From Gemmatimonadaceae bacterium (GTDB lineage Bacteria; Gemmatimonadota; Gemmatimonadetes; Gemmatimonadales; Gemmatimonadaceae), in contig JALOPO010000001.1 of NCBI GenBank assembly GCA_025453855.1, forward strand, positions 1-55,314: 55,314 nt of DNA, given 5' to 3'. Position 1 is the stretch's first letter. Each line of letters opens with the position of its first letter. The notes beneath the pieces were generated by a model that worked only from the letters and a program-made list of their open reading frames with translations, had not been told where the DNA came from and did not search any database. Of the stretch, positions 3,833-34,672 are shown piece after piece. Position numbers and translations under genes: made by a program.

Positions 3833-4081
3833 TCACACCGACTGTACCACCGCCCCCGCCAGCTCCTCGACCTGCTGGTCGACGAGCCGCACCGTCTCCT
3901 CGGGGAGCACCTCACGGAGCGTCTCGCGGAGGTCCGCCGCCCACCGGGCAACGCGAGGGTTCGGCGAGCGGCCGCGGGCCAGATCCGAGTCCAGCAACGC
4001 GCGCAGGAGGTAGGCGCCGGTGAGCGCGTCGACGGTGATCGCCTTGGAGGGGGCGGGGGGCAACGAGGGGGTGGTGCTCAT
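3833..4081 (-). CDS. Small hypothetical protein (82 aa), last gene of the AAA+/HD operon
   Basis: The ATG at 4081 overlaps the stop of the upstream HD gene (ATGA). Protein begins MSTTPSLPPAPSKAITVDAL... Confidence 0.5.
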   Translation of the reverse strand: MSTTPSLPPAPSKAITVDALTGAYLLRALLDSDLARGRSPNPRVARWAADLRETLREVLPEETVRLVDQQVEELAGAVVQSV

Positions 4082-5268
4082 GCTCGGGTCTCCGCGTCGG
4101 AGGGGAATGGGACCAGCAACGACAGGAGCGTGTCCTGACCGCTCGGGGGGGCTGCGGTCACCACAGGCGGCGGGGCCGGAGGCACGTCGTCCGCCACGAG
4201 GCACGCGATAGTCGGGAGCACCGCGTCGGGTGCACACCGGTCGCTCGCCACCGGCGTGATGCGGACCGCATCGCGCGCCCATCCGCCGACGGGCTGCACC
4301 CAGTGCTCAGCGACCCTCGTTCCGGACCTCGCGGCCTGCGCCCCCTTCTCGACATGCGCCGAGGCCAAGTCCGCGGCGTGAAGGAGCCACGCCTCTCGGG
4401 ACGCGGGGCGCACATTCGAGCCCCACTCGGCCAGATTGTGGTGGCTCGCGACCACGTGCATGACATCGTCGAAGAGGGTGCCTTGCTCGGGCGTCATCAC
4501 GAAGCCAGCGTGCTCTGCCCGAGTCAGCGCCTCCTTGAGGCGCACGGCGCCCCACAGGATGTGCGTGGCCAGTCGACCGGCGTCGCCGATTCCACCACCG
4601 GCACGCAGTTCGTCGATCTTGCCCGCGTCGTGCAGGAGACCGCCGAGCACCACGACGTCGGTGTTGAGCGACACCGGGCCATCACCGTCCAACACGCTCG
4701 CGAGCGCGAGCGCCCCCTCGGTGACCTGCACGGAATGCCACCAGAGCCCGTGCCGCACGGCGTGATGATGCCCTACGGCGGCCGGCCACCGCCGCCAGCG
4801 GTTTGCGATGGTCTCACGCAACCCATCCCCCCACTCGAGTGCCGTGTGCAGCAGGACGTGAAGCAGCGCGAGTGCCGCCGGCGAGCAACGCTCTAGGAGC
4901 GCGCGCGTGCGGTCGTAGAGGCGCTCTGCCGACACCGGGCACGGAGGCACGCTCTCCTCGGCCACCGGGTGCGTGGCGGCCAGGATCGCGAGGTCGTCGA
5001 CACTCCACGCGAGGCCGTCGGGGAATGACGACACCGCGGAGCATCGCACATGGAGCGGCGTGCCGACGCCGACGTCGCGCCATTCGTCGAGGCGGTCGGA
5101 CCACACGCGCACCGTCGTCTTGCCCAACGCGTTCGCCAGGCCGATCACCGCGTACGGCTTGCCGTCCTTCGTCGTGCGGCGGTCGATGCTGGCCACCACC
5201 ACCGTGCCCTGCGCACTCTCGCCGATCCGGGTGGGGGTCGTGTCGCACGGGAACCGCGTGTTCGTCAT
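4078..5268 (-). CDS. OB-fold + HD-domain phosphohydrolase (YhaM/Cbf1-like nuclease)
   Basis: N-terminal OB-like segment GTVVVASIDRRTTKDGKPYAVIGLANALGKTTVRVW. HD signature residues HHHAVRHGLWWH, GGLLHDAGK, VVASHH, LLHAADL. GAGGAGGA lies 6 nt upstream of the ATG at 5268. Confidence 0.65.
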   Translation of the reverse strand: MTNTRFPCDTTPTRIGESAQGTVVVASIDRRTTKDGKPYAVIGLANALGKTTVRVWSDRLDEWRDVGVGTPLHVRCSAVSSFPDGLAWSVDDLAILAATHPVAEESVPPCPVSAERLYDRTRALLERCSPAALALLHVLLHTALEWGDGLRETIANRWRRWPAAVGHHHAVRHGLWWHSVQVTEGALALASVLDGDGPVSLNTDVVVLGGLLHDAGKIDELRAGGGIGDAGRLATHILWGAVRLKEALTRAEHAGFVMTPEQGTLFDDVMHVVASHHNLAEWGSNVRPASREAWLLHAADLASAHVEKGAQAARSGTRVAEHWVQPVGGWARDAVRITPVASDRCAPDAVLPTIACLVADDVPPAPPPVVTAAPPSGQDTLLSLLVPFPSDAETRA

Positions 5269-5305
5269 GCTGTCCTCCTCGCTTCCAGTGGGAAATGGGA
5301 CGTCG

Positions 5306-6250
5306 TCACGGGAGGAGCGCGCGCACGATCCGGTCGCAGGCGATCCCCTCGACCGCGTGGGCCAGGCTGCGCGGGCCGGCAAATGACTCGATGTCAAGGC
5401 TCGAGGCGGCATCGGACAGCGCGACGAGGGCGTCCGGGACCCCGAGCGCTCGCGCCAGTGCGTCGTAGGCGCTCTGCCGAACCTGAACGAGGTGCGTGCG
5501 CACTCGCGCGTCTACGCCCGGCAGCGACACGACGCTCCCCACGCGGTCTGCAAGCTCCGGCAGGAAGCCGACCTCGGTGAGCGTCCGACTCGTGATCGGG
5601 TGGCCGGTCGGCAGCATTGCGAAGGCGCCTGTGGAAAGCACCGCGAGCTTGTGCGTCTCGATGCGGAGCGGCACCGCGTCCTTCGCGGCGACGGCCGTCA
5701 CGACCCCCTCAGGATCGAGCAGCGGGAGCAGCGTCTCCTGACGACCGCGACGCCAACTGGCCGACTCGCGTTCGTGCCGGTGATCCCCGTAGCTCGCCAG
5801 CGAGAGCTTGCAGATCTCGTCGAGCACGAGGATCCCGCGCGGCGCCACATCACGGACCGTGATGGTGACCCCATCGGTCTGTGCGGCGAATGACGAGACA
5901 CCGCCGCAGAGCGCGCGGAGCGTGTCACTCAGCTGGGGCCCCGACCAGGTAGCCTCGGCCATGTCGGTGACGCAGAACCGAACCATCGGGACGCCGAGCG
6001 ACGCGGCGATAGTGCGCGCGATGAGGGACTTGCCGCTGCCCGTCGGGCCAGCGAGCAGCGTGCGCCACGGCAGTTCCAGGCAGTACCACGCGGTCGCCTG
6101 GACGGCGAGGCGCGCGAGCGCCCGCTCGAGCGGGCCGCCATCGTCACCGACGACGGTCGCCTTGAGGACCGCGAGGACGTGCGCGAGGACTGCGGGGGCA
6201 TCCTCACGCGGGGGCGGGGCCGAAGTGAGGGCAGGGAGCACCAGGGTCAC
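5306..6250 (-). CDS. ClpX/HslU-like AAA+ ATPase (no zinc-finger, no protease partner)
   Basis: Walker A GPTGSGKS and Walker B ILVLDEICK. ClpX-like segment RRGRQETLLPLLDPEG...LAVLSTGAF. A GTG start at 6250 is preceded by GGAGG. Confidence 0.7.
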   Translation of the reverse strand: MTLVLPALTSAPPPREDAPAVLAHVLAVLKATVVGDDGGPLERALARLAVQATAWYCLELPWRTLLAGPTGSGKSLIARTIAASLGVPMVRFCVTDMAEATWSGPQLSDTLRALCGGVSSFAAQTDGVTITVRDVAPRGILVLDEICKLSLASYGDHRHERESASWRRGRQETLLPLLDPEGVVTAVAAKDAVPLRIETHKLAVLSTGAFAMLPTGHPITSRTLTEVGFLPELADRVGSVVSLPGVDARVRTHLVQVRQSAYDALARALGVPDALVALSDAASSLDIESFAGPRSLAHAVEGIACDRIVRALLP

Positions 6251-6518
6251 GCGGAGCCTCCGAGTCGAATGGACTGTGCGGCACGTCGCGAGGAGATCAC
6301 ACGTCCCCTCGCATACGAAAGACAGCGGGCGGCCATAGGGCGATGGCTTGTGCGCTCGCGCGTGCGAGCGCTCACGGCGGATGCGTCGTATCGCATCGCC
6401 TCCAGCGCCCGCGCTGCATGGCGCCAACGCGCATCGCCATGCAGCCCGGGGCACCGATGGTGCGCGTCGCTTGTCAGCCGTGAGGCAGCGACCGACGGAC
6501 ATTGCGCACCCTCCTGCG

Positions 6519-7202
6519 TCAGGCGCCGCGCGCCCGGCGCCTCACCCGACGGGCCGGGAGCGACACCTGCGGCGCCGGCGCGGGCTGCGCCGGCCCGTGC
6601 TGCCCAGTCGCCCGCACGAAGGGCGCGAGGACGCGCACGAGCACCGGACGGACGATGGACAGGTAGCGCCGGATGCTGCGCTCCGAGAGGCCGAGCGCCG
6701 CCTCGATGTCCGCGTTCGCCGCGCCAGCTTCGTAGCGGAGGCGCACCAGCTCCTGCAGCCATGCCGGGAGGTTGGCGAGTGCGGCATCCCAGGCGGCGCG
6801 GATCGCCACGTCGCGCGGGTTCACCGCGTGCGTCGGCTGGACGAGGCATGCGGCGAACTGCGATGTGAGATCACCGGGCGCGCCCAGCCGGATGCGATCC
6901 CTGCCGCCGCCCGAGATCGCATACCGGAGCGCCAGCGTGCTAGCGGAGCGGGTGAGGTACGCCGTGACCTCGCGTTCGTGGGTGAAGGCGTCGGCGCGGC
7001 GCACCAACGGCAGCAGCGCATCCTGCGCCACGTCGAGGGCGATCTCCTCCGCGGTCCAGTCGCTCGCCCCCATGCGCGGCAGCAGCCGGGTGCACACAGG
7101 CAGCAGGGTGTCGATGGCCTTGTCGTAGTAGCGGATGGACCGGGGGTCCGTGTGCGGGCTGTGCGCGCCCTGAAGCGCGCGGAGCAGCGGAAGCAGCGCC
7201 AT
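6519..7202 (-). CDS. Sigma-70 family (ECF-like) RNA polymerase sigma factor
   Basis: Region-2-like DVAQDALLPLVRRADAFTHEREVTAYLTRSA. Region-4 HTH LPAWLQELVRLRYEAGAANADIEAALGLSERSIRRYL. Confidence 0.7.
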   Translation of the reverse strand: MALLPLLRALQGAHSPHTDPRSIRYYDKAIDTLLPVCTRLLPRMGASDWTAEEIALDVAQDALLPLVRRADAFTHEREVTAYLTRSASTLALRYAISGGGRDRIRLGAPGDLTSQFAACLVQPTHAVNPRDVAIRAAWDAALANLPAWLQELVRLRYEAGAANADIEAALGLSERSIRRYLSIVRPVLVRVLAPFVRATGQHGPAQPAPAPQVSLPARRVRRRARGA

Positions 7203-7555
7203 GTCGTACTCTCCTTGATTGGAGTGTGGCCCCTCCCTTGTGGAGCGGCCGTGGCGCAGCGTGTCGCGCTCTCACGGGGGGCGCCGGTGCTGAATCGGAG
7301 CGGCCATCCACACGCTTGTTCGTCGCACCGCCTGACTGACAAACCCGCCGATTTGACGGTCGAGCGATTGCGCTGACGTCACGCGCGGGTTGACGCTACG
7401 AGGGACGTCACCTGCCCGATGCGAGAACCGGATGCATGGGGGGCACACCAGCGAGTGGACGACCAGCCCCGAGCCAGCACCTTCGCGGAGGGGGGGGCTA
7501 CTTCGCCCCGTCGGGCCTCTCGCGGACGGCTCGCCGGCTGCCGTACGCTCGAGGC

Positions 7556-7858
7556 ATGACGACATCACTCTCGACCCCGGCTGGAGCTGCGCGAACGTCG
7601 CGAGCTCGACTGACCAAGCATCGCTGGCTCACCTTCGGCGAGGTTGTCCACCTCCTCCGGCTTCCGCGTCATGCGCGCCGCTACCTGCAACGCCGGCTGC
7701 TTGGATCGGCATGGGAGGACATCTTGCAGATTCAACGTCTTGCGGCTGAGCACAGCCGTGAGCTCCCTACACCGCCGGACAGTCCAGCCCCATGGGTCAT
7801 GTCCCGTCGCCTCGTGCTCACCCACCGGCGGGCGTTGCTGATCGAGCTGTTCGGCTGA
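7556..7858 (+). CDS. Small putative DNA-binding protein (AlpA/excisionase-like HTH)
   Basis: Internal ATG. The segment HRWLTFGEVVHLLRLPRHARRYLQRR resembles excisionase-type HTHs. It is divergent from the sigma factor gene. Confidence 0.4.
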   Translation: MTTSLSTPAGAARTSRARLTKHRWLTFGEVVHLLRLPRHARRYLQRRLLGSAWEDILQIQRLAAEHSRELPTPPDSPAPWVMSRRLVLTHRRALLIELFG

Positions 7859-7941
7859 CAAGAGGGCGGACCGAGTATGCGAGCGCCGCGCCGCGCCTCC
7901 GAGAGGCACGGCGCGGCGTGTCCGCGATGCCGAGCGTCCAA

Positions 7942-10566
7942 TCAGTGCGGCTTTCGGCGCCGCACCGCGATGATGCGCACATCAGCCCCTTGCCGCCGCC
8001 GCATCCAGGCCATCGCGAGGGCGCGCGGCATTCGCTCGATCTCGCCCGCGCGCGCCGCACGACTCCACGCATCCCAGAGGGCTGCGAAGTTGGGACGCCG
8101 GCCGGGCATCACCAGGAAGTCGATGACGGGCCGCTGGTGGAGCAGCGGATGGCGCCAGTCGGTGGCCTCGCTCAGGGCCGAGTGCTTCGCGGTGTCGATG
8201 GGCACCGAGTAGTCCTTCTTGAGGGTGCTGACGCGGTCGGTCGTCGCGCGCGCGGCCAATGCGTCCGGCTCGAATCGGGTGACGCGTCCCATGCTGTCGC
8301 ACCGCTCGAATGTGACTCCATCGAGCGCGAGGACCCCTAGGCAGTGCGTCGCCCACCACAAGCGTGTCACGTGGGGGGTGAGCAGCCACGGCCACCGGCG
8401 AGCGGCCTCGCCGTCGTTCAGCGGGATCGGATCGGCGATGATCCCGTACTCGTCCAGCCGCATGCCACGCATGGCGGCGAGCAGCGCAGCCCGGAAGCGC
8501 ACCCGGAGCCCGTGGGCATCGGCGTACGCCCCTGGCGTCACCTTGCCCCGCCGCGGGCGCCGCCACTTGCCGCCGTCGGTCACGAACAGCGCGAACGTGC
8601 CAGCGTGCAGTGCTTCCCGCATAGTCGCGTCGGCGGCGATCAAGCTTCGACGCTTGAGCGTGGGGAGCCACACGTGCGTCAGGTACTCGGCCAGCCACCG
8701 GTAGTCCACCGCAACGCGAGGCCACTGCCAGTGTCGCTGCCCGAAGTTCCTCGTCTTCAGCATCGCGAGCTCGTTGCCGAGCGTGACCGCGACTGCGGCT
8801 CCGCCGTAGTGCGAGTCCACCCGGGTGATCTTCTCGAGTGAGCCGTCCGCCGCGTAGGTCGCCTCGATGGTGACCTCCGTTTCGCGCACGCCCACGCGGG
8901 CGGCCCAGTGATTGCGGCAGCGCACGGGGTCGCCGACGAATGCCGCAAAGGCGAGCCACTGCCGCAGGCCCTCGCGATAGGCCTCCTCGGCTCGGTCGAG
9001 CTCCGGGTGCGACTCGCCCCCCTGCCTCCCGCGCTCAATCCGCTCGCCCTTCTGCGCATCAAGCCGGCTTCGCATGCCGTCGCACACTGCCCGCAGGCGA
9101 GACAGCTCGCACTCGGTCCACCAAGGCAGCGCAAAGGCGAGTGCCCAGGGCAGCGAGAACATGGTCGCGGCCTCGCGCTTGTTCTTGACGGGAGTCTCGG
9201 TGCCGAGCACGGACATGAGCGATTCGCGCGCCGTGCGCCATGCCGCCTCCGCTTGTGCGCGCTCGGCGGCCGCCTTCGGCGCGAGCACTCGGCCCTTGGT
9301 GTGGACGGCCGCCACATGCTGCGCCGCGCGCCACGCCGCGTCCGCGTCGGCGCGGACGGAGGGCACGAGGCCGCTCGAGAGCCCGGGGGACGCCTTGAGC
9401 AGGAGGCCGGTGCGGGCTGCCCACACCAGCACGGCTAGGAGGGCAGGGAGCCCGTCAGGCGTGGCTTCGGTCTCGCCGAGCAGGGAGTCGTCGTGAACCG
9501 CGTCGCGCTGCTGCAGTTCGTGCTCATTGAGATAGATCGGGAGCGGCTCAGTCCACCACCGCCAGAGGCGCGTCGTACGCGCGAGGTCGTGAGGGACGAC
9601 CCCCGCCTGTGCCGCGTGGAAGGCGAAGGCCACGATGCGGAGGAGTGCGGCCTCCATGTGGTCCAACGTCGTGTCCGAGCAGGCGATGCCCCCGGTGCGC
9701 CGCAGCGCCTGCCAGCGCTCGACGAGCGCGACCAGCGCCGGGACGACTGGACGCGCGATGTCCAGATGGCCGGCGACGGTCCCCGCGAGCCGACGGCTGG
9801 CGACGAGCCGTGCGGGCACGGGCCAGTGCGGAATCCCGGGGACCTGCAGGGCCGCCAGTTGTCCCAAGGCGGACCGCACGGCGAACCGAGTCTGGCGCTT
9901 CGGGACAAGCGTCGCGAGGCGCTTCCCCAAGGCGAGCGGTTCATTCGGCAGCTCGTCCGGCTGGAAGCCCGCCGCAGTGCAGGCGACCGCCAGGTGCATC
10001 AGGCCCGTGACGACCCCCTCGGTGACCGCCGGGCGATGGGCGCGCACCGCCGCGACCACCTGCTGCCACTCCTCGCTGAGCCGCGAGGTGCGAAGACGCA
10101 CGGGCGCCTTGTCACTAAAGCCGGACACGAGAGCCGTTAGGAGCCGACTTGCCCGCGTGCGGGCGGTGCGGCGCGAGTCGGGCGTGCTCCGCAACGACGC
10201 CACCGCCTCGGGAACGCGGTGCAGGAGCGCCCGGATGTCGGCTCCCTGCGGCCCGTGCTCGAGCGCGTAGCGCGCGCGCCCGACGCTCGCCTCGTCGGGC
10301 GTGAGGGTCGAGAGTGCGGCGTGCACGAGACCAGAGTGGACGTCGCTCCATGCGGACTGCACGGTGCTGGCCGACCATGTGCCCCAGTGCCCGTCCTCGC
10401 CGAGACACTTGGCCGTCAGCCCGGCACGCAGGTGCGGCTGCACCAGCGCGTGGAGATCCGCGAAGCGGATCGGCTGGGCGAGAGAAAGGCGGTGCGTGAG
10501 GCTCCGGGCCGCCTTGGTTCGACGACGTGACGGGCCATGATCCTTGTTCGTTCGGTTCCGCTGCAT
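7942..10566 (-). CDS. Giant (874 aa) tyrosine-recombinase-like protein
   Basis: The ATG at 10566 has GGAGG 5 nt upstream. The C-terminal region has LLTPHVTRLWWATH (HxxR) and ATTDRVSTLKKDYS (candidate catalytic Y). The long N-terminal extension is unrecognised. Confidence 0.5.
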   Translation of the reverse strand: MQRNRTNKDHGPSRRRTKAARSLTHRLSLAQPIRFADLHALVQPHLRAGLTAKCLGEDGHWGTWSASTVQSAWSDVHSGLVHAALSTLTPDEASVGRARYALEHGPQGADIRALLHRVPEAVASLRSTPDSRRTARTRASRLLTALVSGFSDKAPVRLRTSRLSEEWQQVVAAVRAHRPAVTEGVVTGLMHLAVACTAAGFQPDELPNEPLALGKRLATLVPKRQTRFAVRSALGQLAALQVPGIPHWPVPARLVASRRLAGTVAGHLDIARPVVPALVALVERWQALRRTGGIACSDTTLDHMEAALLRIVAFAFHAAQAGVVPHDLARTTRLWRWWTEPLPIYLNEHELQQRDAVHDDSLLGETEATPDGLPALLAVLVWAARTGLLLKASPGLSSGLVPSVRADADAAWRAAQHVAAVHTKGRVLAPKAAAERAQAEAAWRTARESLMSVLGTETPVKNKREAATMFSLPWALAFALPWWTECELSRLRAVCDGMRSRLDAQKGERIERGRQGGESHPELDRAEEAYREGLRQWLAFAAFVGDPVRCRNHWAARVGVRETEVTIEATYAADGSLEKITRVDSHYGGAAVAVTLGNELAMLKTRNFGQRHWQWPRVAVDYRWLAEYLTHVWLPTLKRRSLIAADATMREALHAGTFALFVTDGGKWRRPRRGKVTPGAYADAHGLRVRFRAALLAAMRGMRLDEYGIIADPIPLNDGEAARRWPWLLTPHVTRLWWATHCLGVLALDGVTFERCDSMGRVTRFEPDALAARATTDRVSTLKKDYSVPIDTAKHSALSEATDWRHPLLHQRPVIDFLVMPGRRPNFAALWDAWSRAARAGEIERMPRALAMAWMRRRQGADVRIIAVRRRKPH

Positions 10567-10920: not shown

Positions 10921-11763
10921 CTACTTGACGTCAGTCGCCATGGGCTTCTGCGCCCTCGTGCGCCGCAGGCGGCTCGCGCTCGCGGCGGTGACCTGGTCCT
11001 GCAGCTCCTTGCGCGCCCGCTCCGTGGCGGCGAGCTCACCCTCCAAGCGACTGGCGGCGGACTTCGCCTCGAGGGTGACATCGCGCTGCCGGGCGGTCTC
11101 CGCCTCCGCGCGGTCCGCCCGTGCTCGCGCAGCTTCGAGGTCCACCTGCAGACGTGCGAGCTGCTCGGCGACGGCGACCGCGTCGGCCTGAGCGCGCTCC
11201 TGCTGCAGGAGCACCTTGGCGCGGAGCTCTCCGACCTCCTCCTCGGCACGGTCGCACCGACCGCGCAGCTCATCGAGGTCACGGCGCGCCACGTCGAGGG
11301 CGGTACTGGCGTCGTCCGCTCGCGCGGAAGCCTCCTGCGCGACTGCGTTCGCCCTGTTCAGGTCATCCACGAGCTCGTCGCGGTCGGCGCGCAGCTCCTG
11401 TTCGACCTCCTGCAGCCGACGCAGCTCGGCGTCGCGGCTCGCGGCCACTTGGGCGCCGAGCTCCCGGCGCGCCTTCAGCACCAGGCGCTTGAGAGTGAGC
11501 ACCGCGGCGTTCCACTCGTCGTCCACCGGGCCGTCGAACGCCTCGCCGGACGACGACGCCCGCTGGAGGCTGACCTCCCCATCCGCGCCGGCCGCCAGCT
11601 CCTCGTCGTCCCGGAGCGCCGCCAGCACTCGACCGGCGACCTCGCCGCTGCACCCCGCCTCCTGTCGGAGCCGCCGGTACGTGAGCGCTCCCCGCTGCTG
11701 CAGCAACCGCGCGGTCTCCACCAACTCGATCCACCGATCCGATCCGGGTTCCACCCGCTTCAT
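10921..11763 (-). CDS. KfrA-like DNA-binding coiled-coil protein
   Basis: The N-terminal WIELVETARLLQQRGALTYRRLRQEAGCSGEVAGRVLAAL resembles the KfrA_N DNA-binding domain. About 200 aa of Ala/Arg/Glu-rich coiled coil follow. Confidence 0.6.
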   Translation of the reverse strand: MKRVEPGSDRWIELVETARLLQQRGALTYRRLRQEAGCSGEVAGRVLAALRDDEELAAGADGEVSLQRASSSGEAFDGPVDDEWNAAVLTLKRLVLKARRELGAQVAASRDAELRRLQEVEQELRADRDELVDDLNRANAVAQEASARADDASTALDVARRDLDELRGRCDRAEEEVGELRAKVLLQQERAQADAVAVAEQLARLQVDLEAARARADRAEAETARQRDVTLEAKSAASRLEGELAATERARKELQDQVTAASASRLRRTRAQKPMATDVK

Positions 11764-12062
11764 TGGGCCACCTGTGCTTCCGTTCACTCCTGCGCTGGGC
11801 CGGTCGGTCGATCCGGTCATGCCGGAGGGCTGGCCGGCCGGCGGCTCGGCCACTTGGCGAGCGCACGGGGTCAGCGTGGATAGTGTGGGCGGCTCGGCTG
11901 GGGGCGCCCACTCTGGACGCGTGCGGGGCGATCCGGCCGGGTGCAACGGCCATCTGTGGCTTCCTCGCTCCCACTGGGCCGTGGTCGATCCGGATCGACA
12001 GCGATCCGGATTGCCTCGCCCGATCCGGATCCTCCTCGATCCGGATCAGAACTGATCCGGTC
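11728..12062. repeat. Array of GATCCGG(AT) motifs upstream of the kfrA-like gene
   Basis: At least 8 copies. Five are regularly spaced (16-19 bp) at 11987, 12003, 12022, 12038 and 12054. They include the perfect 14-bp palindrome TCGATCCGGATCGA at 11985-11998. Confidence 0.7.
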
Positions 12063-12331: not shown

Positions 12332-12457
12332 TCAGTCGCAGCAGCACTTTCCGCAGCACGGGCTGCCGTCACACCCGCAGGTGCAGGACGGGCAGTCGCA
12401 GCAGCACGCGTCGGTGCAGCAGGTGTCAGTGCGGGTAGCGTAGTCAGCGGTCGTCAT
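12332..12457 (-). CDS. 41-aa cysteine-rich peptide, metallothionein-like (not in the ORF track)
   Basis: MTTADYATRTDTCCTDACCCDCPSCTCGCDGSPCCGKCCCD, with 14 Cys. The ATG overlaps the TGA of the upstream merR-family gene (ATGA). GAGG lies 8 nt upstream and the ORF ends in TGA. Confidence 0.6.
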   Translation of the reverse strand: MTTADYATRTDTCCTDACCCDCPSCTCGCDGSPCCGKCCCD

Positions 12458-12981
12458 CGTCGTGACCTCGGGTTGGATGGGGGAAGGTCCTGCTCTTGGA
12501 AGCCTAGGCGGACCAGCGCGTCGCCTGGGGTCGTGCCCGCGTCGTCAAGCGCCTCGTCGTCGCGCGCCTCGTCGAGGGCGCCGATGATGGGGCAACTCGC
12601 GTCGTCTGTCGGGCCGTCGGGTCCGCAGGTCGCCTCGCACGTCTCGACGAGGTCGGCCAGCGCGCCGCGGAGCGCCAGGAGCTGCCGGACGCGGTCGTCG
12701 ATGTCGCGGACCTTGGCCGCGGCCACCTCGCGCGCTGCGACCGCGGCCGCCGGCCGCCGCGCGTCGTCCCGCAGCCGCACGAGCTCTTCGACCTCAGCGA
12801 GCGTGAAGCCGAGCGCCTGGGCGCGCTTGATGAACCGCACCAAGGCCGCCGCCTCGGGCGGGTACTCGCGGTAGCCACTCGCGCGGCGGCCGGTGGGCCG
12901 CAGCAGCCCACGCCGCTCGTAATACCGGAGCGCATCGACGCTCACGCCCGTCCGGGCGGCGAGGGTGCCGATGCGGAGCAC
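12454..12981 (-). CDS. MerR-family metal-responsive regulator (ORF is open to 13128; start uncertain)
   Basis: HTH LRIGTLAARTGVSVDALRYYERRGLL, a coiled dimerisation helix, and a C-terminal Cys loop ETCEATCGPDGPTDDASC. The GTG at 12981 has GAGG upstream. The GTG at 13128 would sit at the predicted transcription start. Confidence 0.7.
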   Translation of the reverse strand: MLRIGTLAARTGVSVDALRYYERRGLLRPTGRRASGYREYPPEAAALVRFIKRAQALGFTLAEVEELVRLRDDARRPAAAVAAREVAAAKVRDIDDRVRQLLALRGALADLVETCEATCGPDGPTDDASCPIIGALDEARDDEALDDAGTTPGDALVRLGFQEQDLPPSNPRSRR

Positions 12982-13134
12982 GTCGCCTCGGTGAGACCCC
13001 CTCAGCGCCTGGGGAAGGGCCTCACTCACTGGGGCACCCGCATGGCCCGACGCACGGCCCGGCGCACGGCCCGGCGCACGTGTGTCGGGGTTCCGAGGAC
13101 GGTAGGTGGCGGCGGGGGGAATGGTCACAAATGA

Positions 13135-13166
13135 ATCCTACACTCTGGAGCGCGCTCCAGAGTCAA
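13135..13166 (-). promoter_or_regulatory. ZntR-type MerR operator-promoter
   Basis: The minus strand reads TTGACT-CTGGAGCGCGCTCCAGAGTG-TAGGAT, with a 20-bp spacer. It contains the 22-bp palindrome ACTCTGGAG-CGCG-CTCCAGAGT. Confidence 0.7.
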
Positions 13167-13639
13167 GGGGCGGTGCCCTCCTCCCCCGCAGACACATCCC
13201 AGGTGTTGCCGAGGGTGCGCAGGATCTGGCAGTCGGCGACGGCGCGTCCGCCGCGGCACTCACCGATCACGCGTATCAGCTCGGTCCGGAGGGCCGCGAG
13301 TTGCGCGAGTTTCGCCTCGACCTGCGCCAGGTGGGCGCGCGCGAGCTGGTCGACGTCGGCACACGGCCGTCCGGGGTCGTCGGACAGCGACATCAGGTCC
13401 CGCACCTCGTCGAGCGAGAAGCCCAGATCCCGGGCGCGCCGCACGAACCCGAGCCGCTCGACGTCGACCGCGCCGTACCGCCGGTACCGTCCCGCGCCGG
13501 CGCGGGCGGGCGCGGGGAGCACGCCGACGCGCTCGTAGTAGCGGATCGTCTCGGGTGTGGTTCCCGTGCATGCGGCGAGCTCGCCGATGACCAGGGTGGC
13601 GGCCGCGGGAGGCGGAGGGACGGTCGGCGGGCTCGACAT
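13163..13639 (-). CDS. MerR-family regulator, PbrR/CadR-like divalent-metal sensor
   Basis: HTH LVIGELAACTGTTPETIRYYERVGVL. Cys in PCADV (the position-79-like ligand typical of divalent sensors) plus a C-X8-C loop ECRGGRAVADC. Confidence 0.75.
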   Translation of the reverse strand: MSSPPTVPPPPAAATLVIGELAACTGTTPETIRYYERVGVLPAPARAGAGRYRRYGAVDVERLGFVRRARDLGFSLDEVRDLMSLSDDPGRPCADVDQLARAHLAQVEAKLAQLAALRTELIRVIGECRGGRAVADCQILRTLGNTWDVSAGEEGTAP

Positions 13640-13659: not shown

Positions 13660-13690
13660 TTGACCTTGTAGTTGCTACAGGGTGCAAGAT
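13660..13690 (+). promoter_or_regulatory. PbrR/CadR-type MerR operator-promoter (divergent)
   Basis: TTGACC-(19 bp containing the dyad CTTGTAG-ttg-CTACAGG)-CAAGAT. It sits between the merR-family gene and the TonB receptor gene. Confidence 0.7.
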
Positions 13691-13696
13691 ACTGGC

Positions 13697-16099
13697 ATGC
13701 GAACCCTTCGCCATCTGAGCCCCTATCCCTACCTGGGCCCACTGCCCCGCGTCGTCCTACTCAGCGTGGCTGTCGTTGCTGCCGTGGCCCCGGGGCGCCC
13801 CGCCGCCGCCCAGCCCGCGGCGACCGCCCGCGATACCCTCGCCACGCTGCGCGTGCGGGTCCGGCGGGACACCGTGCCCGTCGAGGGCGTGGTGGTCCGG
13901 AGCGGCCGCACAGGGACACCCACGGACGCGTCCGGGGCGGCCACCCTACGCCTCCCTGCGGGGCCGCACGCGATCATCACGGCGCGCATTGGCTTCCGGC
14001 CCGACACCACGCGGCTCACGCTGCGCGCGGGTCAGGACACTGCCATCGTGGTGCGGCTCGCCGAGCAGGGGTCGGCCCTCGAGGCCGTCGTCGTGACGTC
14101 CACGCGCGGCGAGCGCCGCATCGAGGACACGCCGCTTCGGGTCGAGGTGCTCGACGAGGAGGAGATCGCCGAGAAGGTGGCGATGACGCCGGGTGACATC
14201 GCCATGATGGTCAACGAGACGAGCGGGCTCCGGGTGCAGACTACCAACCCGTCTCTCGGCGGCGCCAACGTTCGCATCCAGGGGCTCCGCGGCCGGTACT
14301 CGCTCATCCTCGCCGACGGGCTGCCGCTCTACGGCGGCCAGGCGGGCGGGCTCGGGCTGCTGCAGATCCCGCCGGTGGACCTCGGGCGCGTCGAGATCAT
14401 CAAGGGCAGCGCGTCGGCACTCTACGGCAGTTCGGCGCTGGGCGGCGTGATCAACCTGGTGAGCCGACGCCCCGGCGACGACCGTGACGGTACGGCGCTC
14501 GTGAACCAGACCTCGCGCGGCGGCACCGACGGGGTGGCGTTCCTGTCCGGGCCCGCGTCGGAGCGGTGGGGGTACACGCTGCTCGCCGGCGCGCACCAGC
14601 AGCGGCGGAACGACCTGGACGGCGACGGCTGGACCGACATGCCCGGGTACGAGCGCGCGGTCGTCCGGCCCCGCTTCTACTTCGACGACGGCCGCGGGCG
14701 CACGGCGTTCCTGACGGGCGGGGTCACCGCCGAGAACCGGACGGGCGGCACGCTCGACGGCCGCACGGTGCCGGACGGCGGCCCGTACGGCGAGGCGCTG
14801 CGCACGCGGCGCGCGGACGTGGGCGGGCTCGCGCGATGGGTGGCCCCGGACTCCGGAGGCTTGGCCGGCATCGGCGCGCTCCGCGGGTCCATCCTCACCG
14901 TGCGGGGCTCCGCCGTCGAGCAGCGCCACGGCCACCGGTTCGGCGCGGTCCGGGAGGAAGACCGGCACCGCACCTGGTTCGGCGAGGCGGCCCTGACGGT
15001 CCCGCGCGTCGTCGGCGGCCGACCCGTGACCACGGTCCTCGGCGCCGCGCTCCAGCAGGACGCCTACCGCAACGCCGACGTCGCCGGCTTCGACTACACG
15101 TTCACGGTCCCTGCGGCGTTCGCGCAGCTCGACGTCTACCCGGCTGCCTGGCTGTCGCTCTCGGCCAGCGCGCGCCTCGACGCGCACAACGCGTACGGCA
15201 CGTTCGTGAACCCGCGGGTCTCGGCGCTCCTGCGCCGGCCGAGTGAGGGCGCGCTCGCCGGCTGGACGACGCGGCTCTCGGGCGGCACGGGGGCGTTTGC
15301 CCCCACGCCGTTCACCGAGGAGACCGAGGCCACGGGGCTCGCTCCCTTGGCCCCGCTGGCGGGCCTCGTGGCCGAGCGGGCGCGCAGCGCCTCGCTGGAC
15401 GTCGGCGGGCCCGTCGCGACGGCGCTCGGCCGGCTGGAGGTCAACGTAACGGCGTTCGGCTCGCGCATCGCGCACCCGCTCGCGGTCGTGGACGCCGCCG
15501 GCGTCACGGCCGCCGGCGCGCGTCGCATCGCCCTGCAAAACGCCCCCTTACCAACGCGCACCTGGGGCGGCGAGTTCCTCGCGCGCCTCGTGCACCCGCT
15601 GGGCGAGGAGCTCCCCGGCGGTGAGGAAGCGCCGTCTCTGCGGATCACGGGCACGTACACGTACCTGCGCTCGAGGGAGTGCGACCCGGATCGCGCGTCC
15701 GCAGGCGCGGCCTGCGCACGCCGTGAGGTGCCGCTGACGCCCCGGCACGCCGCGGGCGTCGTCACGACCCTGGAGCAGGAGGGGATGGGCCGCGTGGGGC
15801 TCGAGGTCTACTACACGGGGCGGCAGACGCTCGAGAACGACCCGTACCGCGCCGAGAGCCGACCGTACGTCGTCGTGGGGCTGTTAGGCGAGCGGGCGTT
15901 CGCGACGCCGGCTGGCGTCGCCCGGCTGTTCGTCAACCTGGAGAACCTGACCAACGTGCGACAGACCCGGTTCGACCCGCTGCTGCTGCCCAGCCGCGGC
16001 CAGGGAGGGCGGTGGGCGACGGACGCGTGGACGGAGCTCACCGGCTTCACCGTCAACGCCGGCGTGCGGCTCGGCTTCGGGCATCGGGAGGACCGATGA
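13697..16099 (+). CDS. TonB-dependent receptor with N-terminal carboxypeptidase-regulatory-like domain
   Basis: Signal peptide. Plug motifs VVVTSTRGERRIEDTPLRVEVL, GLRVQTTN.., RIQGLRGRYSLILADG and IEIIKGSASALYGSSALGGVINLV, followed by a long beta-barrel. Confidence 0.85.
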   Translation: MRTLRHLSPYPYLGPLPRVVLLSVAVVAAVAPGRPAAAQPAATARDTLATLRVRVRRDTVPVEGVVVRSGRTGTPTDASGAATLRLPAGPHAIITARIGFRPDTTRLTLRAGQDTAIVVRLAEQGSALEAVVVTSTRGERRIEDTPLRVEVLDEEEIAEKVAMTPGDIAMMVNETSGLRVQTTNPSLGGANVRIQGLRGRYSLILADGLPLYGGQAGGLGLLQIPPVDLGRVEIIKGSASALYGSSALGGVINLVSRRPGDDRDGTALVNQTSRGGTDGVAFLSGPASERWGYTLLAGAHQQRRNDLDGDGWTDMPGYERAVVRPRFYFDDGRGRTAFLTGGVTAENRTGGTLDGRTVPDGGPYGEALRTRRADVGGLARWVAPDSGGLAGIGALRGSILTVRGSAVEQRHGHRFGAVREEDRHRTWFGEAALTVPRVVGGRPVTTVLGAALQQDAYRNADVAGFDYTFTVPAAFAQLDVYPAAWLSLSASARLDAHNAYGTFVNPRVSALLRRPSEGALAGWTTRLSGGTGAFAPTPFTEETEATGLAPLAPLAGLVAERARSASLDVGGPVATALGRLEVNVTAFGSRIAHPLAVVDAAGVTAAGARRIALQNAPLPTRTWGGEFLARLVHPLGEELPGGEEAPSLRITGTYTYLRSRECDPDRASAGAACARREVPLTPRHAAGVVTTLEQEGMGRVGLEVYYTGRQTLENDPYRAESRPYVVVGLLGERAFATPAGVARLFVNLENLTNVRQTRFDPLLLPSRGQGGRWATDAWTELTGFTVNAGVRLGFGHREDR

Positions 16100-27792: not shown

Positions 27793-28114
27793 GTCTCGCG
27801 CGCGGCGCTGACGTGCGGCCACTGTAGCCGTAGATGTCATGCGGCAGCTCCCTGGCACCGACCGGCACCGGCCGTCGGACGCCGGAGCGCCTGTCACCGC
27901 CGCGCACCCGTTCGACCTCGGCTGAGGTGTTCGCCAGTCGGCGATCCCCCGAGGCGGGCGGCCCCGCACCGTCCACGACTCGACCGCGTCGACGCTCCGC
28001 CGCCTGTGGCAGCGTCGGCCGCGGGTCCCCGTCACCCGTGGTGCCGCCGGCACACGTGGCGAGGGGCGTGGGCGCCGTTGGCGGGTGGACTCAGGCTCAA
28101 GGAGAGATCCGCTC

Positions 28115-29644
28115 GTGCTTCCCGTTGTCGCGCCCGCGTCGGCGCCTCTTGGCGCCCCCTGGCGCCCTCTCACGCGATGCCCCCTCCCTCGGGCGACGGT
28201 CGTGGTAGCCGTGGCCGTGGGGCTGGTCGGCCGACCGGCTGGCGCCCAGACACCTGCGGACTGCCCTACGGGGGCAGCGTCTGCCGGCATCGCGGCCGAC
28301 AGCGTGACGCTGTCACTCGCGGATGTGCGACGGCTCGTCTTCGAGAAGAACCTGTCGCTTCAGGCCGCGCGCCAGGAATCGGCCATCGCGCAGGGCGCCC
28401 TTCGCCAGGCACGGCTGTACCAGTTCAATCCTGATCTATCGCTGACGGCCGTCGACGCGGAGGCGGGCCAGTTGGGTGGCACGCCGCAGGTTGCGCTCAC
28501 GCAGGAGATCGAGTTCGCCGGGCAGCGCGGGCTCCGCATCGGTGCGGCACGCGTCGGCGTACAGCGGGCGGCGTTCTCGGTACAGAATGCCGCCCGCCTG
28601 ACCGTCGCGGAGGCGAGCAGCGCATTCTTACGAGCGGTCGCGGCCGAACGGCGCCTCGGTGTGGCGCAGTCGATCTTCGCGCTCAACGAGCGCCTGCTGA
28701 ACGCCGTGCGCATCCAGCTCAGCGCGGGTGAGATCAGTGCGCTCGACGCCAACCTGGCCGAGGTCGAGTTCGGCCGGTCGCGTGCCCGCGTGCTGGCGGA
28801 GCGCCGGGCCGCCACGGGCGCCCGGCTCGAGCTGCAGCGGCTCGTGGGCGTGGACCCCGCCGTACCCGTGCGCTTGGTGGACGACGGGCAGCCGCTGCTC
28901 GCGAGCCTCGCCGCCCCAGCGGTCGTCGCAGCAACGACCCGAGGAGTCGTCACCACGATGCCGGTTCCCGCGCGAGCGTCCGGCGCGGACACCGCCGCCT
29001 TCGATACGGACGCGCTCGTGCGGATCGCGCTCGAGCGTCGACCCGACCTCGCCGTCAACGCCGCGACGGTCGCCGAGGCCAGCGCGCTCGCGGCGGTCGC
29101 CGGCCGCGAGCGCGTGCCCAACCTTCGGCTCGGCGTCATCACCGGAAGCGGGAGCCGCGGCATCGGCGGGGTCGGCGGCGCCATCGCAGGCGGCCTCGGG
29201 CCGGTGGTCGGGCTCACGCTACCGATCTTCAACCGCAACCAGGGCGTGCTCGCGCAGCGCCGCGCCCAGGTCGAGCAGGCGCGGCTGGAGCGCGAGGCCA
29301 CGGCGTTGCGGGTGCGCACCGAGGTGATCGCGGCGGCGCGCGCCTACCGCACGGCGAGCGAGGAGGCATCGGTGTTCGAGGTGTCGGTGCTCCAGCCGGC
29401 GCGGGCCAACAGCGCCCTGCTCGACACGGCATTCCAGGCGGGCAAGATCGCGCTGCCCACGCTCTTGCTGCTCCGCAACCAGCTGCTCGATGCGGAGCTG
29501 GGCTACTACGACACGTGGCTGGCCCAGCGCGAGGCGCTGGTGCAGCTCGCCGCCGCGACCGGGGGCCTCACGCAAACCGGCGCCGGTGGGCGTGAGACCA
29601 CCTCCCTCGACACGACAAGGACTCCGACAAGGACCGCGCGATGA
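28115..29644 (+). CDS. czcC: Outer-membrane efflux factor (TolC/CzcC family)
   Basis: OEP repeats such as LSLADVRRLVFEKNLSLQAARQE.. and LLDAELGYYD... The GTG at 28115 has AAGGAGAG upstream. Confidence 0.8.
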   Translation: MLPVVAPASAPLGAPWRPLTRCPLPRATVVVAVAVGLVGRPAGAQTPADCPTGAASAGIAADSVTLSLADVRRLVFEKNLSLQAARQESAIAQGALRQARLYQFNPDLSLTAVDAEAGQLGGTPQVALTQEIEFAGQRGLRIGAARVGVQRAAFSVQNAARLTVAEASSAFLRAVAAERRLGVAQSIFALNERLLNAVRIQLSAGEISALDANLAEVEFGRSRARVLAERRAATGARLELQRLVGVDPAVPVRLVDDGQPLLASLAAPAVVAATTRGVVTTMPVPARASGADTAAFDTDALVRIALERRPDLAVNAATVAEASALAAVAGRERVPNLRLGVITGSGSRGIGGVGGAIAGGLGPVVGLTLPIFNRNQGVLAQRRAQVEQARLEREATALRVRTEVIAAARAYRTASEEASVFEVSVLQPARANSALLDTAFQAGKIALPTLLLLRNQLLDAELGYYDTWLAQREALVQLAAATGGLTQTGAGGRETTSLDTTRTPTRTAR

Positions 29645-30960
29645 TTCCGAAGTCCACACCCGCCTGGCCGACGACTCGTTCGCAGGGCACCGAAATGCGG
29701 CGCGCCGATGTGTGTCGCAGCCATCATGGCTGGCGGCCCGCTGCAGCGCTCACGGTGATCGCTCGGGTCCTGACCGGTGGGCTGCTCCTATCCGTGCTCG
29801 GTGCCTGCAGTCGCGGCGACGCTGACACGACGAGGGACGCGACGCCCGAATCGGCGTCGGCCAGGAAGGCGTCGGCCGCGCGCCCCACGGCGGACAGTGC
29901 CGCCGGCGGCCACAGCGCCGAGATCGTCACGCTCGACAGCGCGGCCGTCCGGCTCGGTGGCATCCAGGTCGACGCGGTGACCACGATCACGTCGACCGGC
30001 CTCCCGGTGACCGGCAGCATCACCTACGACCCGAACCGCGTCAGTCACGTGGGGCCGCGGACCGACGGGCGCGTCCTCACGCTGCGCGCCAACCTCGGGG
30101 ACCGCGTGAGCCGCGGGGAGGTGCTCGCAGTGCTCGAGAGCCCCGAGGTGGGGCAGCTCCGGGCCGAGGAGCGGGAGGCCGAGGAGCTCGTGCGCATCGC
30201 GCGCGAGAACTACGCGCGCGAGCAGGGGCTCGCCCGGCAGGGCATCTCGAGTCGGAAGGAGCTGCTCGACGCCGAGGCCGAGCTGCGCCGCAACCAGGCC
30301 GCCCTGCGGAGCGCGGAGTCCCGGCTCGACGTGCTCGGCGCCGAGCACGATCACAGCCAGGGCGGGCGCTTCTCGCTGACCGCGCCGTTCGCTGGGTCGG
30401 TGGTCGCGCGCGATGCGAGCCCCGGAGGCATGGCGACGCCCGCCGACACGCTGTTCACTGTGGCCGACCTGTCGCGCGTGGCCATCGAACTCGACGTGTT
30501 CGAGCGCGACCTCGCGCGCGTGCGCCGCGGGCAGCCCGTCGCGGTGACCGTGACCGCATATCCGGGCCGCACCTTCCAGGGGCGGGTCGCCTACCTGGGC
30601 GAGGTGCTCGACCCGCAGAACCGCACCGTCGAGGCGCGCGTCGAGATCCCGAACCCCGACGGGGCGCTCAAGCCCGGCATGTTCGCCACGGCGCGCATCC
30701 AGGTGGGAGGCGGCGGGCCCGCGCTCGTGGTCGTACCGCAGGACGCCCTGCAGGACGTCGGGGGGCGCCGCGTCGTGTTCGTGCCCGGCGTGCGCCCGGG
30801 CGAGTTCCGGCCGACACCGGTCGAGGTCGGGGAGTCGCTCGACGGCGGGCGCGTGGTGATCCGCGCGGGCCTCGCGCCCGGCGCCCGCGTGGTGGTGGCC
30901 GGCGCGTTCGCGCTCCGGTCCGAGCTCGCCAGGGCCGAGCTGTCCGAGGCTGAGCACTAG
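29641..30960 (+). CDS. czcB: RND periplasmic adaptor (CzcB/HlyD family)
   Basis: The ATG overlaps the czcC stop (ATGA). Contains lipoyl and beta-barrel motifs GRVLTLRANLGDRVSRGEVLAVLESPEV. Confidence 0.85.
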   Translation: MIPKSTPAWPTTRSQGTEMRRADVCRSHHGWRPAAALTVIARVLTGGLLLSVLGACSRGDADTTRDATPESASARKASAARPTADSAAGGHSAEIVTLDSAAVRLGGIQVDAVTTITSTGLPVTGSITYDPNRVSHVGPRTDGRVLTLRANLGDRVSRGEVLAVLESPEVGQLRAEEREAEELVRIARENYAREQGLARQGISSRKELLDAEAELRRNQAALRSAESRLDVLGAEHDHSQGGRFSLTAPFAGSVVARDASPGGMATPADTLFTVADLSRVAIELDVFERDLARVRRGQPVAVTVTAYPGRTFQGRVAYLGEVLDPQNRTVEARVEIPNPDGALKPGMFATARIQVGGGGPALVVVPQDALQDVGGRRVVFVPGVRPGEFRPTPVEVGESLDGGRVVIRAGLAPGARVVVAGAFALRSELARAELSEAEH

Positions 30961-30977
30961 GCCGGGGGACCACACTC

Positions 30978-34145
<3,168 letters not shown>

Positions 34146-34234
34146 GCGCCTCGGTGCTGCGTGCCGCACCCGCCGGTCGCTTGACCGGCGCGGTGCGCAC
34201 CACGCGGTGGGGCGACGGCGTCCGAGGCACACCC

Positions 34235-34621
34235 ATGCACGACACCTGTCCAACATCCGGCGGTGCCGGAAGGCGTTCGACCTGCGGCGGCTGCAAGGGG
34301 TGGACGGCGCGCATGCGTTCGCACGGCTTCCGGGTGACCGAAGTCGAGCATGAGGACCTCACGACCGTGATGTCGCAGGCCGGGGTGCCGTTGCTCCTGG
34401 ACGCGTGCCAGATCGCGCGCGTGGGCGCCTACGTGGTCGAGGGGCACGTGCCGGCGCCGGACGTGCGCCGGCTCCTCACCGAGCGGCCCACGATGACCGG
34501 GAGCGCCGCGCCGGGCATGCCGATGGGGTGGCCGGGCATGGAGGGGCCGTACCCGCCCGACCGCTACAACGTCCGGGCGCTCGACCGCGGCGGCGGCGGG
34601 CGCGTGTTCGCCGAACACTGA
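34235..34621 (+). CDS. DUF411 (CopG-like) metal-binding protein, variant motifs; start uncertain (GTG at 34142 possible)
   Basis: VEGHVPAPDVRRLLTERP and PGMPMGWPGMEG are family hallmarks. It has CGGC and DACQ where I recall CxCC and SCHT. Confidence 0.65.
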   Translation: MHDTCPTSGGAGRRSTCGGCKGWTARMRSHGFRVTEVEHEDLTTVMSQAGVPLLLDACQIARVGAYVVEGHVPAPDVRRLLTERPTMTGSAAPGMPMGWPGMEGPYPPDRYNVRALDRGGGGRVFAEH

Positions 34622-34672
34622 CGCCTCGCCCCGGCGCCGCTCCGGCGCCCTTCCTCCCTCATCCACGCGGCC

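Follow-up and report, generated by a model that had tools for sequence, protein, structure and literature searches.

A short, cysteine-rich open reading frame (ORF) in a 55,314-nucleotide stretch of Gemmatimonadaceae DNA (contig JALOPO010000001.1; "the window" below means this whole stretch) lies directly behind the gene of a MerR-family metal sensor, here called merR2, and its product is most likely a new bacterial metal sponge, metallothionein-like and very small. Judged by its conservation in other loci, the ORF is a genuine, conserved and essentially unannotated gene family. We consider it probable that the product is a translated, cytoplasmic mini-metallothionein, a metal-induced peptide that would sequester Hg, Cd, Pb or Zn in a thiolate cluster. 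The family is new in sequence and, as such a peptide, of a functional kind already known.

A conserved family of cysteine-rich peptides

The peptide, MTTADYATRTDTCCTDACCCDCPSCTCGCDGSPCCGKCCCD, has 41 residues, of which 14 (34%) are Cys; it holds no His, and its one Tyr sits in a variable N-terminal tail. The core of the window peptide, CCCDCPSCTCGCDGSPCCGKCCC, is 50% Cys. The ORF starts with the ATG at 12457-12455, ends with the TGA at 12334-12332, and shares bases at its start with the merR2 stop codon (TGA, 12456-12454), giving the sequence ATGA. Both the composition and the start region, including a GAGG 8 nt upstream, had been described in the original prediction of a metallothionein (MT) at this site, and minus-strand reading together with the ORF list confirmed them. 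The GC content at third codon positions (GC3, ~ 88%) is in line with the coding frame of a 73% GC genome, and neither a hydrophobic segment nor a signal peptide is present. When the six-frame ORFs of the window with 30 amino acids (aa) or more are compared, this one reaches 13 Cys within 27 aa and the runner-up 7, and 40 Markov-1 randomisations gave maxima of 5–7 Cys per 27-aa stretch. A chance origin of the Cys-rich ORF is therefore excluded.

Thirteen further metagenomic loci (L004 and L077-L088), with GC contents of 59–75%, encode the peptide. A word-indexed search of 5.8 billion proteins returned a single relative, P0001 (42 aa, 68% identity), which is encoded on contig L004, and a 12-member profile run through the same search again returned P0001 alone. 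A full HMMER scan of 1.84 billion representatives gave one extra match, P0002, from contig L077. The remaining loci came from a metagenome scan with degenerate DNA back-translated from CCCDCPxCxCGCD, for which the motif of the peptide core was written as TGYTGYTGYGAYTGYCCN-N3-TGY-N3-TGYGGNTGYGAY. The strict pattern was found on 11 contigs among 241 million metagenome records, with L077 added through P0002.

All homologous ORFs begin with ATG and have 29–41 codons, and in all other loci purine-rich sites of the GGAG/GAGG type were observed 6–10 nt upstream of the ATG. The consensus (alignment A2) is M-x(4-16)-CCCDCPxCxCGCDxGPCCG[K/N]CCC-x(0-2), with 12 conserved Cys in a core of ~ 24 residues that holds neither His nor any aromatic residue, while the N-terminal 5–17 residues vary among the members. 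Conservation of the frame had been named as a check when the ORF was first noticed, and the frame is indeed kept in all 13 other loci, 12 of which are free of stops and frameshifts. The exception is L088, in which the ORF departs after ...CCGNCC and continues past the usual stop position. Indels among the homologues come in multiples of three. Variation falls mostly on third codon positions. The PCCGxCCC stretch, which lies outside the search pattern, is also conserved, with 1, 0, and 4 of 8 sites variable at the three codon positions. In the half covered by the pattern, 9 of the 13 free third positions vary, and the loci have therefore truly diverged. Between the window and L004, the 27-codon core shows six synonymous and three non-synonymous changes.

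It remains to ask whether such a small ORF yields a protein at all. It is very short, sits in a 73% GC genome with many spurious ORFs, is overlapped by antisense ORFs of 165 and 226 aa in the ORF list, and is missing from protein databases, all of which would suit a chance high-GC frame, an antisense shadow, or a Cys-codon leader or attenuator without a functional product. We find this scarcely credible. The ORF is an extreme Cys outlier, and Asp, Pro, and Gly are kept alongside Cys, with synonymous variation, across loci of 59–75% GC. The limits of the DNA homology between the window and L004 coincide exactly with the MerR promoter on one side and the peptide stop codon on the other, so that the antisense ORFs are not conserved. 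We infer that the peptide is translated in vivo.

The peptide had been presented as unannotated, and this held throughout the databases searched. There was no match in Pfam or NCBIfam at E<=1, and a search of the PDB with the family profile (E<=10) gave only a spurious Zn2Cys6 match at E=1.7. None of 10 exact peptide sequences was found among ~ 15 billion predicted proteins. P0002 (L077, 2143-2370) is the only database entry for a peptide of the B type described below, and it is a 76-aa gene call of the Joint Genome Institute (JGI) in which a TGA stop is read as Trp, in the style of code 4, while the DNA encodes 35 aa. With this read-through gene call, the family is visible in protein databases by accident alone. 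No peptide homologue was observed by tblastn in a plasmid collection or by a motif scan of viral contigs. The peptide motif strings are absent from 8.3 million full texts, and no description of this peptide family was found in the topical literature.

Metal sensors and transcript boundaries

Three independent architectures join the peptide gene to metal sensors; the features of the window are collected in Table 1. In architecture A (the window, L004, L078, L080, and L087), a promoter of the pattern TTGACTCTGGAG-N4-CTCCA is followed by a merR2-type gene and then by the peptide. The merR2-type genes of these loci are 74–84% identical, and merR and peptide overlap by 4 nt in the window and by 14 nt in the other A-type loci. 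Architecture B comprises L077/L084/L088, L079, L081, L083, and L085, and partially L082. Here the peptide lies 60–110 nt behind TTGACC-TTGTAGnnnCTACAAGGTG-TAnnnT, a MerR promoter with a 19-bp spacer; the element, also written TTGACCTTGTAGnnnCTACAAGGTG-TAnnnT, precedes the peptide in seven loci (L077, L079, L081, L083, L084, L085, and L088). In L077, L081, L083, L085, and L088, the peptide is divergent from a regulator 49–59% identical to MerR1 of the window; on contigs L079, L082, and L084 the sequence stops short of a regulator gene. The B-type regulators are CadR/PbrR-like, with three Cys conserved in all B-type loci, and MerR1-type proteins keep three thiolate ligands, namely the dimer-helix Cys and a C-x8-C pair. 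In the window itself, the B-type promoter has a TonB-dependent receptor (ATG 13697) and a CDF efflux operon downstream, not the peptide. Architecture C is represented by L086 (59% GC), in which an ArsR/SmtB-family HTH_5 regulator lies directly upstream of the peptide, with a TonB-dependent receptor divergent from the regulator. Given the MerR-type promoters directly upstream and the ArsR/SmtB neighbour, the peptide is presumably metal-induced.

Table 1. Positions of the peptide gene and of the surrounding features in the window
Feature	Position	Strand	Basis and details
Cys-rich peptide gene	12332..12457	(-)	ORF list and minus-strand reading; homologues in 13 other loci; Cys-density outlier
Shine-Dalgarno-like GAGG	12466..12469	(-)	8 nt before the peptide ATG, within the merR2 3' end
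merR2, A-type MerR-family metal sensor, 224 aa	12454..13128	(-)	Pfam MerR_1, MerR-DNA-bind, and MerR; start GTG 13128
A-type MerR promoter/operator	13135..13166	(-)	TTGACT (13166-13161), 20-bp spacer, TAGGAT (13140-13135)
GC-rich hairpin, 13 bp, 3-nt loop	12241..12269	(-)	RNAfold; 63 nt after the peptide stop; no U-tract
merR1, B-type (CadR/PbrR-like) three-Cys MerR	13163..13639	(-)	Best PDB matches CadR 6JGV and PbrR 5GPE
B-type MerR promoter	13660..13690	(+)	TTGACC, 19-bp spacer TTGTAGTTGCTACAGGGTG, CAAGAT

The original prediction is narrowed by this comparison. Translational coupling through ATGA is seen in the window and is specific to it, the sister loci overlapping by 14 nt and the others being monocistronic. 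The peptide and its own sensor share one operon in the window and the other A-type loci; the B-type peptide is monocistronic.

MerR2 has MerR as its best NCBIfam match and Tn501 MerR (5CRL) as its best PDB match. Its metal loop reads C-x3-C-x11-C-P-I-I, with a Cys missing at the dimer-helix ligand position (Cys79/82), and this loop type is conserved in the A-type loci and in relatives linked to merA. The genomic relatives closest to MerR2 (59–67% identity, with the same operator) come from three Gemmatimonadota-type metagenome-assembled genomes, L005-L007. In L006 and L007, merR is followed by MerA (TIGR02053, 486 and 507 bits; cutoff 454), and in L005 by a small HMA protein. By position, then, the peptide occupies the merA slot of a merR-merA-type operon.

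The A-type element precedes merR in all A-type loci and in L005-L007, and in the window its spacer holds a perfect 20-nt palindrome, CTCTGGAGCGCGCTCCAGAG. Hexamers 19–20 bp apart, a dyad in the spacer, and an adjoining merR gene, the marks of a MerR-activated unit, are all present in the window, where activation would follow the scheme established for the MerR family. A generic sigma-70 scan found no promoter here; MerR promoters carry 19–20-bp spacers. The merR2 GTG stands 6 nt past the -10 hexamer, and the merR2 mRNA is probably leaderless, because the same 6-nt distance between -10 and start codon is seen at both MerR-type promoters of the window. The unit had been described as starting at a ZntR-type metal-responsive promoter. 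As to the operator, which we take to resemble the E. coli zntA promoter closely, this stands, but the nearest relatives of the regulator clade drive merA. For that reason Hg(II) appears no less likely than Zn(II) to be the inducer in the window.

At the other end of the transcript, an 11-bp-stem hairpin had been reported 64 nt downstream of the peptide. The hairpin is there, with the slightly different stem and distance given in Table 1, and it is likely to mark the transcript end. Of the 11 loci whose sequence extends far enough downstream, 9 have a perfect GC-rich hairpin of 11–16 bp that lies 18–65 nt past the stop, and the genes beyond these hairpins differ between loci or are convergent. 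Because hairpins follow the stop codon and the sequence beyond differs between loci, the peptide is the last or sole gene of its transcription unit. A leader or attenuator is ruled out on the same grounds: strong hairpins, not genes, come after the peptide, leaving nothing to attenuate. Rfam gave no match in the 5' untranslated regions or elsewhere in 9 loci.

The close joining of peptide and regulator genes in the A-type loci could also mean that the peptide binds metal but serves a protein partner, either by stripping MerR of its metal and so resetting the switch, as a MerD-like factor or buffer, or by handing metal over to the CDF protein, a P-type ATPase, or an outer-membrane protein. An HMA-domain protein or NmerA-MerA fills the same slot in the relatives, and a CDF protein with an HMA domain adjoins the module in the window and L087. 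We nevertheless regard such a role as unlikely. The B- and C-type peptides are free-standing, with other regulators and neighbours, which argues against a specific protein partner, and 12 Cys in 24 residues far exceeds what a chaperone site needs. Across the loci, the nearby genes encode CDF proteins with an HMA domain, OEP, CarboxypepD_reg/TonB-type outer-membrane proteins, and metallophosphoesterases.

Known metal-binding peptides and the proposed function

At 41 aa (29–41 aa across the family), the peptide falls well within the size of under ~ 10 kDa in the Kagi/Binz definition of metallothioneins, and its 14 Cys of 41 residues, or 12 of 24 in the core, are arranged in CC, CxC, and CxxC motifs, with no His and no aromatic residue beyond the one Tyr of the tail. 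Judged by its sequence, it would thus count as a metallothionein on every point of that definition, while it falls outside every described MT family. SmtA/BmtA (MT family 14, PF02069, SmtB-regulated) are likewise small, Cys-rich, cytosolic, and metal-induced, as is predicted for the peptide, and their gene also lies beside that of the sensor; the L086 peptide even shares a regulator of the ArsR/SmtB family. However, the peptide is half their size, has CCC runs, and lacks their His ligands, zinc-finger-like elements, and aromatic core. Neither PF02069 (Metallothio_Pro) nor its Cys9His2 pattern matched the peptide in the Pfam and NCBIfam searches (E<=1).

MymT, the Cu(I) MT of Mycobacterium tuberculosis, is similarly very small, Cys-rich, missed by annotation, and induced by metal stress, again as predicted for the peptide. 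MymT has His along with CxC and CxHC motifs and is controlled by a copper repressor (RicR/CsoR-type), not by MerR. The original prediction had set the peptide apart from both known types, and hhalign agreed, with a probability of 0.2% for SmtA and of 0.7% over two aligned columns for MymT. Eukaryotic MT domains, such as the vertebrate alpha-domain (M4Cys11) and the Tetrahymena Cd-MTs with CCC, have a similar Cys density, the same grammar of CC, CCC, and CxC, and no hydrophobic core, and the 12 Cys of the peptide are comparable to a four-metal cluster domain. Unlike these, the peptide is bacterial and consists of one domain of ~ 24 residues in which Asp, Gly, and Pro are abundant instead of Lys and Ser.

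For the regulation of the B-type loci, the nearest precedent is Zrd of Pseudomonas aeruginosa, a small Cys-rich protein that is directly activated by CadR and has been proposed as an MT-like Zn/Cd sink. According to the same study, its two zinc-ribbon sites are mononuclear Cys4 centres and its N-terminus is disordered (PMC12301328). Its sequence is unrelated, and the contiguous CCC/CC runs of the peptide suggest a polynuclear cluster instead. With merR-merA operons and HMA proteins (NmerA, MerP, and CopZ), the peptide shares the regulator clade, the operator, and the gene slot, but not the reductase, the ferredoxin-like fold with GMTCxxC, merT, or merP. Its output would be sequestration, not reduction or transport. 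The Csp/DUF326 four-helix bundle (~ 100+ residues) was considered and rejected: the peptide has 41 residues, no confident helical bundle, and no Pfam match. Separately, a Cys-rich ORF of DUF326/Csp-like look (MMTNEAKQKCIDACVACAQECETCATQCC..., L016 ~ 8353, Roseimaritima sediminicola) was observed at a distance of ~ 4 kb from the gene of a MerR homologue, a further case of a sensor-linked Cys-rich protein, though not homologous to the peptide.

The proposed sequence of events begins with a soft metal ion, Hg(II), Cd(II), Pb(II), or Zn(II), which would be bound by MerR2, with Hg favoured for this regulator clade. Metal-bound MerR2 would then remodel the over-long 20-bp-spacer promoter (13166-13135), a realignment that we infer from established MerR biology, giving a short transcript of merR2 and peptide and, in the window, positive autoregulation. 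The peptide would be translated through coupling or re-initiation at ATGA, helped by GAGG, and transcription would stop at the hairpin (12269-12241). The apo-peptide, presumably disordered, would fold round metal ions into a thiolate cluster that, by analogy with the vertebrate MT alpha-domain, might hold ~ 4 divalent ions on 11–12 Cys. A metal-dependent cluster of about this capacity is suggested because 12 thiolates are packed into 24 residues with Asp, Gly, and Pro as spacers, and there is no hydrophobic core, signal peptide, or confident fold. AlphaFold, run on the single peptide sequence without metal, gave a low-confidence model (predicted local distance difference test, pLDDT, 58.7), a value that fits a metal-dependent fold yet is uninformative on metal-thiolate clusters. 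So loaded, the peptide would buffer the cytosol while the CDF, RND, and P-type ATPase efflux pumps of the island remove the metal. Metal binding, its stoichiometry, and the metal concerned are predictions.

Which metal is bound may differ between architectures. Hg(II) is favoured for the A-type loci, because their regulator clade is merA-linked, while the three-Cys sensors of the B type could respond to Cd, Pb, Hg, or Zn. Overall, the original prediction is supported, with the probable inducer shifted towards Hg, Cd, and Pb.

Two other uses of so many thiols were weighed. The peptide could be the precursor of an exported or modified product, such as a ribosomally synthesised and post-translationally modified peptide (RiPP) or a chalkophore-like metallophore, that acts outside the cell together with a TonB-dependent receptor. 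The variable N-terminal 5–17 residues are leader-like, and CarboxypepD_reg/TonB-type proteins lie beside the module in the window, L083, L085, and L086. This is nonetheless very unlikely, as Pfam annotation of the neighbours in 9 loci revealed no conserved maturase, protease, or exporter, the signal peptide is missing, L077/L088, L081, and L087 have no outer-membrane protein gene, and the sensors respond to metal excess, not starvation. The high thiol content would also suit a role apart from metal chelation, in thiol, redox, or electrophile buffering or as a store of cysteine; some MerR-family members (SoxR, NmlR) sense redox or electrophile stress, and they appeared as weak matches in the NCBIfam search. 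We hold this to be highly improbable, since the regulators carry the metal-binding Cys of CadR, PbrR, and MerR and not the features of SoxR or NmlR, the operators are of the ZntR/CadR type, and the genomic surroundings are those of metal efflux.

Several observations weigh against a metal-sequestering cytosolic peptide. The family is rare, its members all come from metagenomic contigs, and no peptide was found at 72 genome loci, the nearest MerR2 relatives included, in a scan made with MerR2 as the query. Part of the invariance in the first half of the core reflects ascertainment, since the search pattern covered that half. The hairpins have no U-tracts, and a generic terminator scan found none. 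The cues to the inducer conflict, with a ZntR-type operator, a merA-linked regulator clade, and CadR/PbrR-like B-type regulators. Finally, the TonB-type outer-membrane protein that recurs beside the module is unexplained by a purely cytosolic sink.

A broader and distinctly more tentative proposal, which we think possible but rather doubtful, is that a minimal-MT family was recruited independently by three soft-metal sensors, namely an atypical Hg-type MerR clade, CadR/PbrR-type MerRs, and an ArsR/SmtB regulator, and that in the window lineage it became the sole output of a merR operon, replacing mercuric reductase. If true, resistance to Hg and other soft metals would be achieved there through sequestration rather than reduction, by a gene that standard annotation does not see.

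The metal-resistance island and further observations

Taken as a whole, the window resembles a heavy-metal resistance island from a Gemmatimonadota-like soil bacterium with 73% GC. The TonB-dependent receptor, of the CarboxypepD_reg type, is divergent from merR1, starts 6 nt past the -10 of the B-type promoter, is probably leaderless, and is followed by the CDF exporter with an HMA domain (13697-17046). In L083, L085, and L086, too, a TonB-type outer-membrane protein is found under the control of a metal-excess sensor. Further genes at 28085-37366 and 50641-52878 encode OEP, a CusB-like membrane-fusion protein, an RND pump, and two P-type (E1-E2) ATPases.

The literature to 2026 on bacterial MTs deals mainly with SmtA/BmtA, the Pseudomonas MTs, and MymT (PMC13519478, PMC12301328). 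With so few MT families under discussion, the sequestration of metals by bacteria is accordingly regarded as rare next to efflux. A conserved, sensor-wired family of 29–41 aa that gene callers do not see suggests that sequestration has been under-counted. The family also offers a natural experiment, with one output gene placed in both MerR-activator and ArsR-repressor circuits, and the peptide is compact enough for synthesis as a high-density thiolate ligand for Hg/Cd/Pb biosensing or bioremediation.

The comparison also brought to light the atypical MerR clade that is merA-linked in Gemmatimonadota. In L005-L007 (~ 3880-6400), its members lack the dimer-helix Cys, have the loop C-x3-C-x10-12-C-P-I-I, and lie directly upstream of merA behind a zntA-like operator; they may represent an atypical design of Hg sensor. 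MerR2 itself has an N-terminal extension of ~ 50 residues in which a 12-nt tandem repeat, cgggccgtgcgc, occurs in ~ 3 copies (13035-13075, minus strand) and encodes RAPGRAPGRASG; the homologous stretch of L004 is 24 nt shorter. The L004 merR has a 1-nt deletion at ~ 5921, a frameshift or assembly error, with the peptide ORF and promoter intact, and DDE_3 and DDE_Tnp_1 transposases of an insertion sequence (6309-8609) come directly after the module.

Between the peptide hairpin and the gene of a coiled-coil protein (10921..11946, minus strand), 4–5 copies of the palindrome GATCCGGATC are spaced 16, 19, and 16 nt apart (11987-12060). Counting sites with one mismatch, the window holds 10, compared to 3.1 expected, and this 75-nt stretch contains all three exact copies along with one 1-mismatch copy. 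The array resembles an operator or iteron array.

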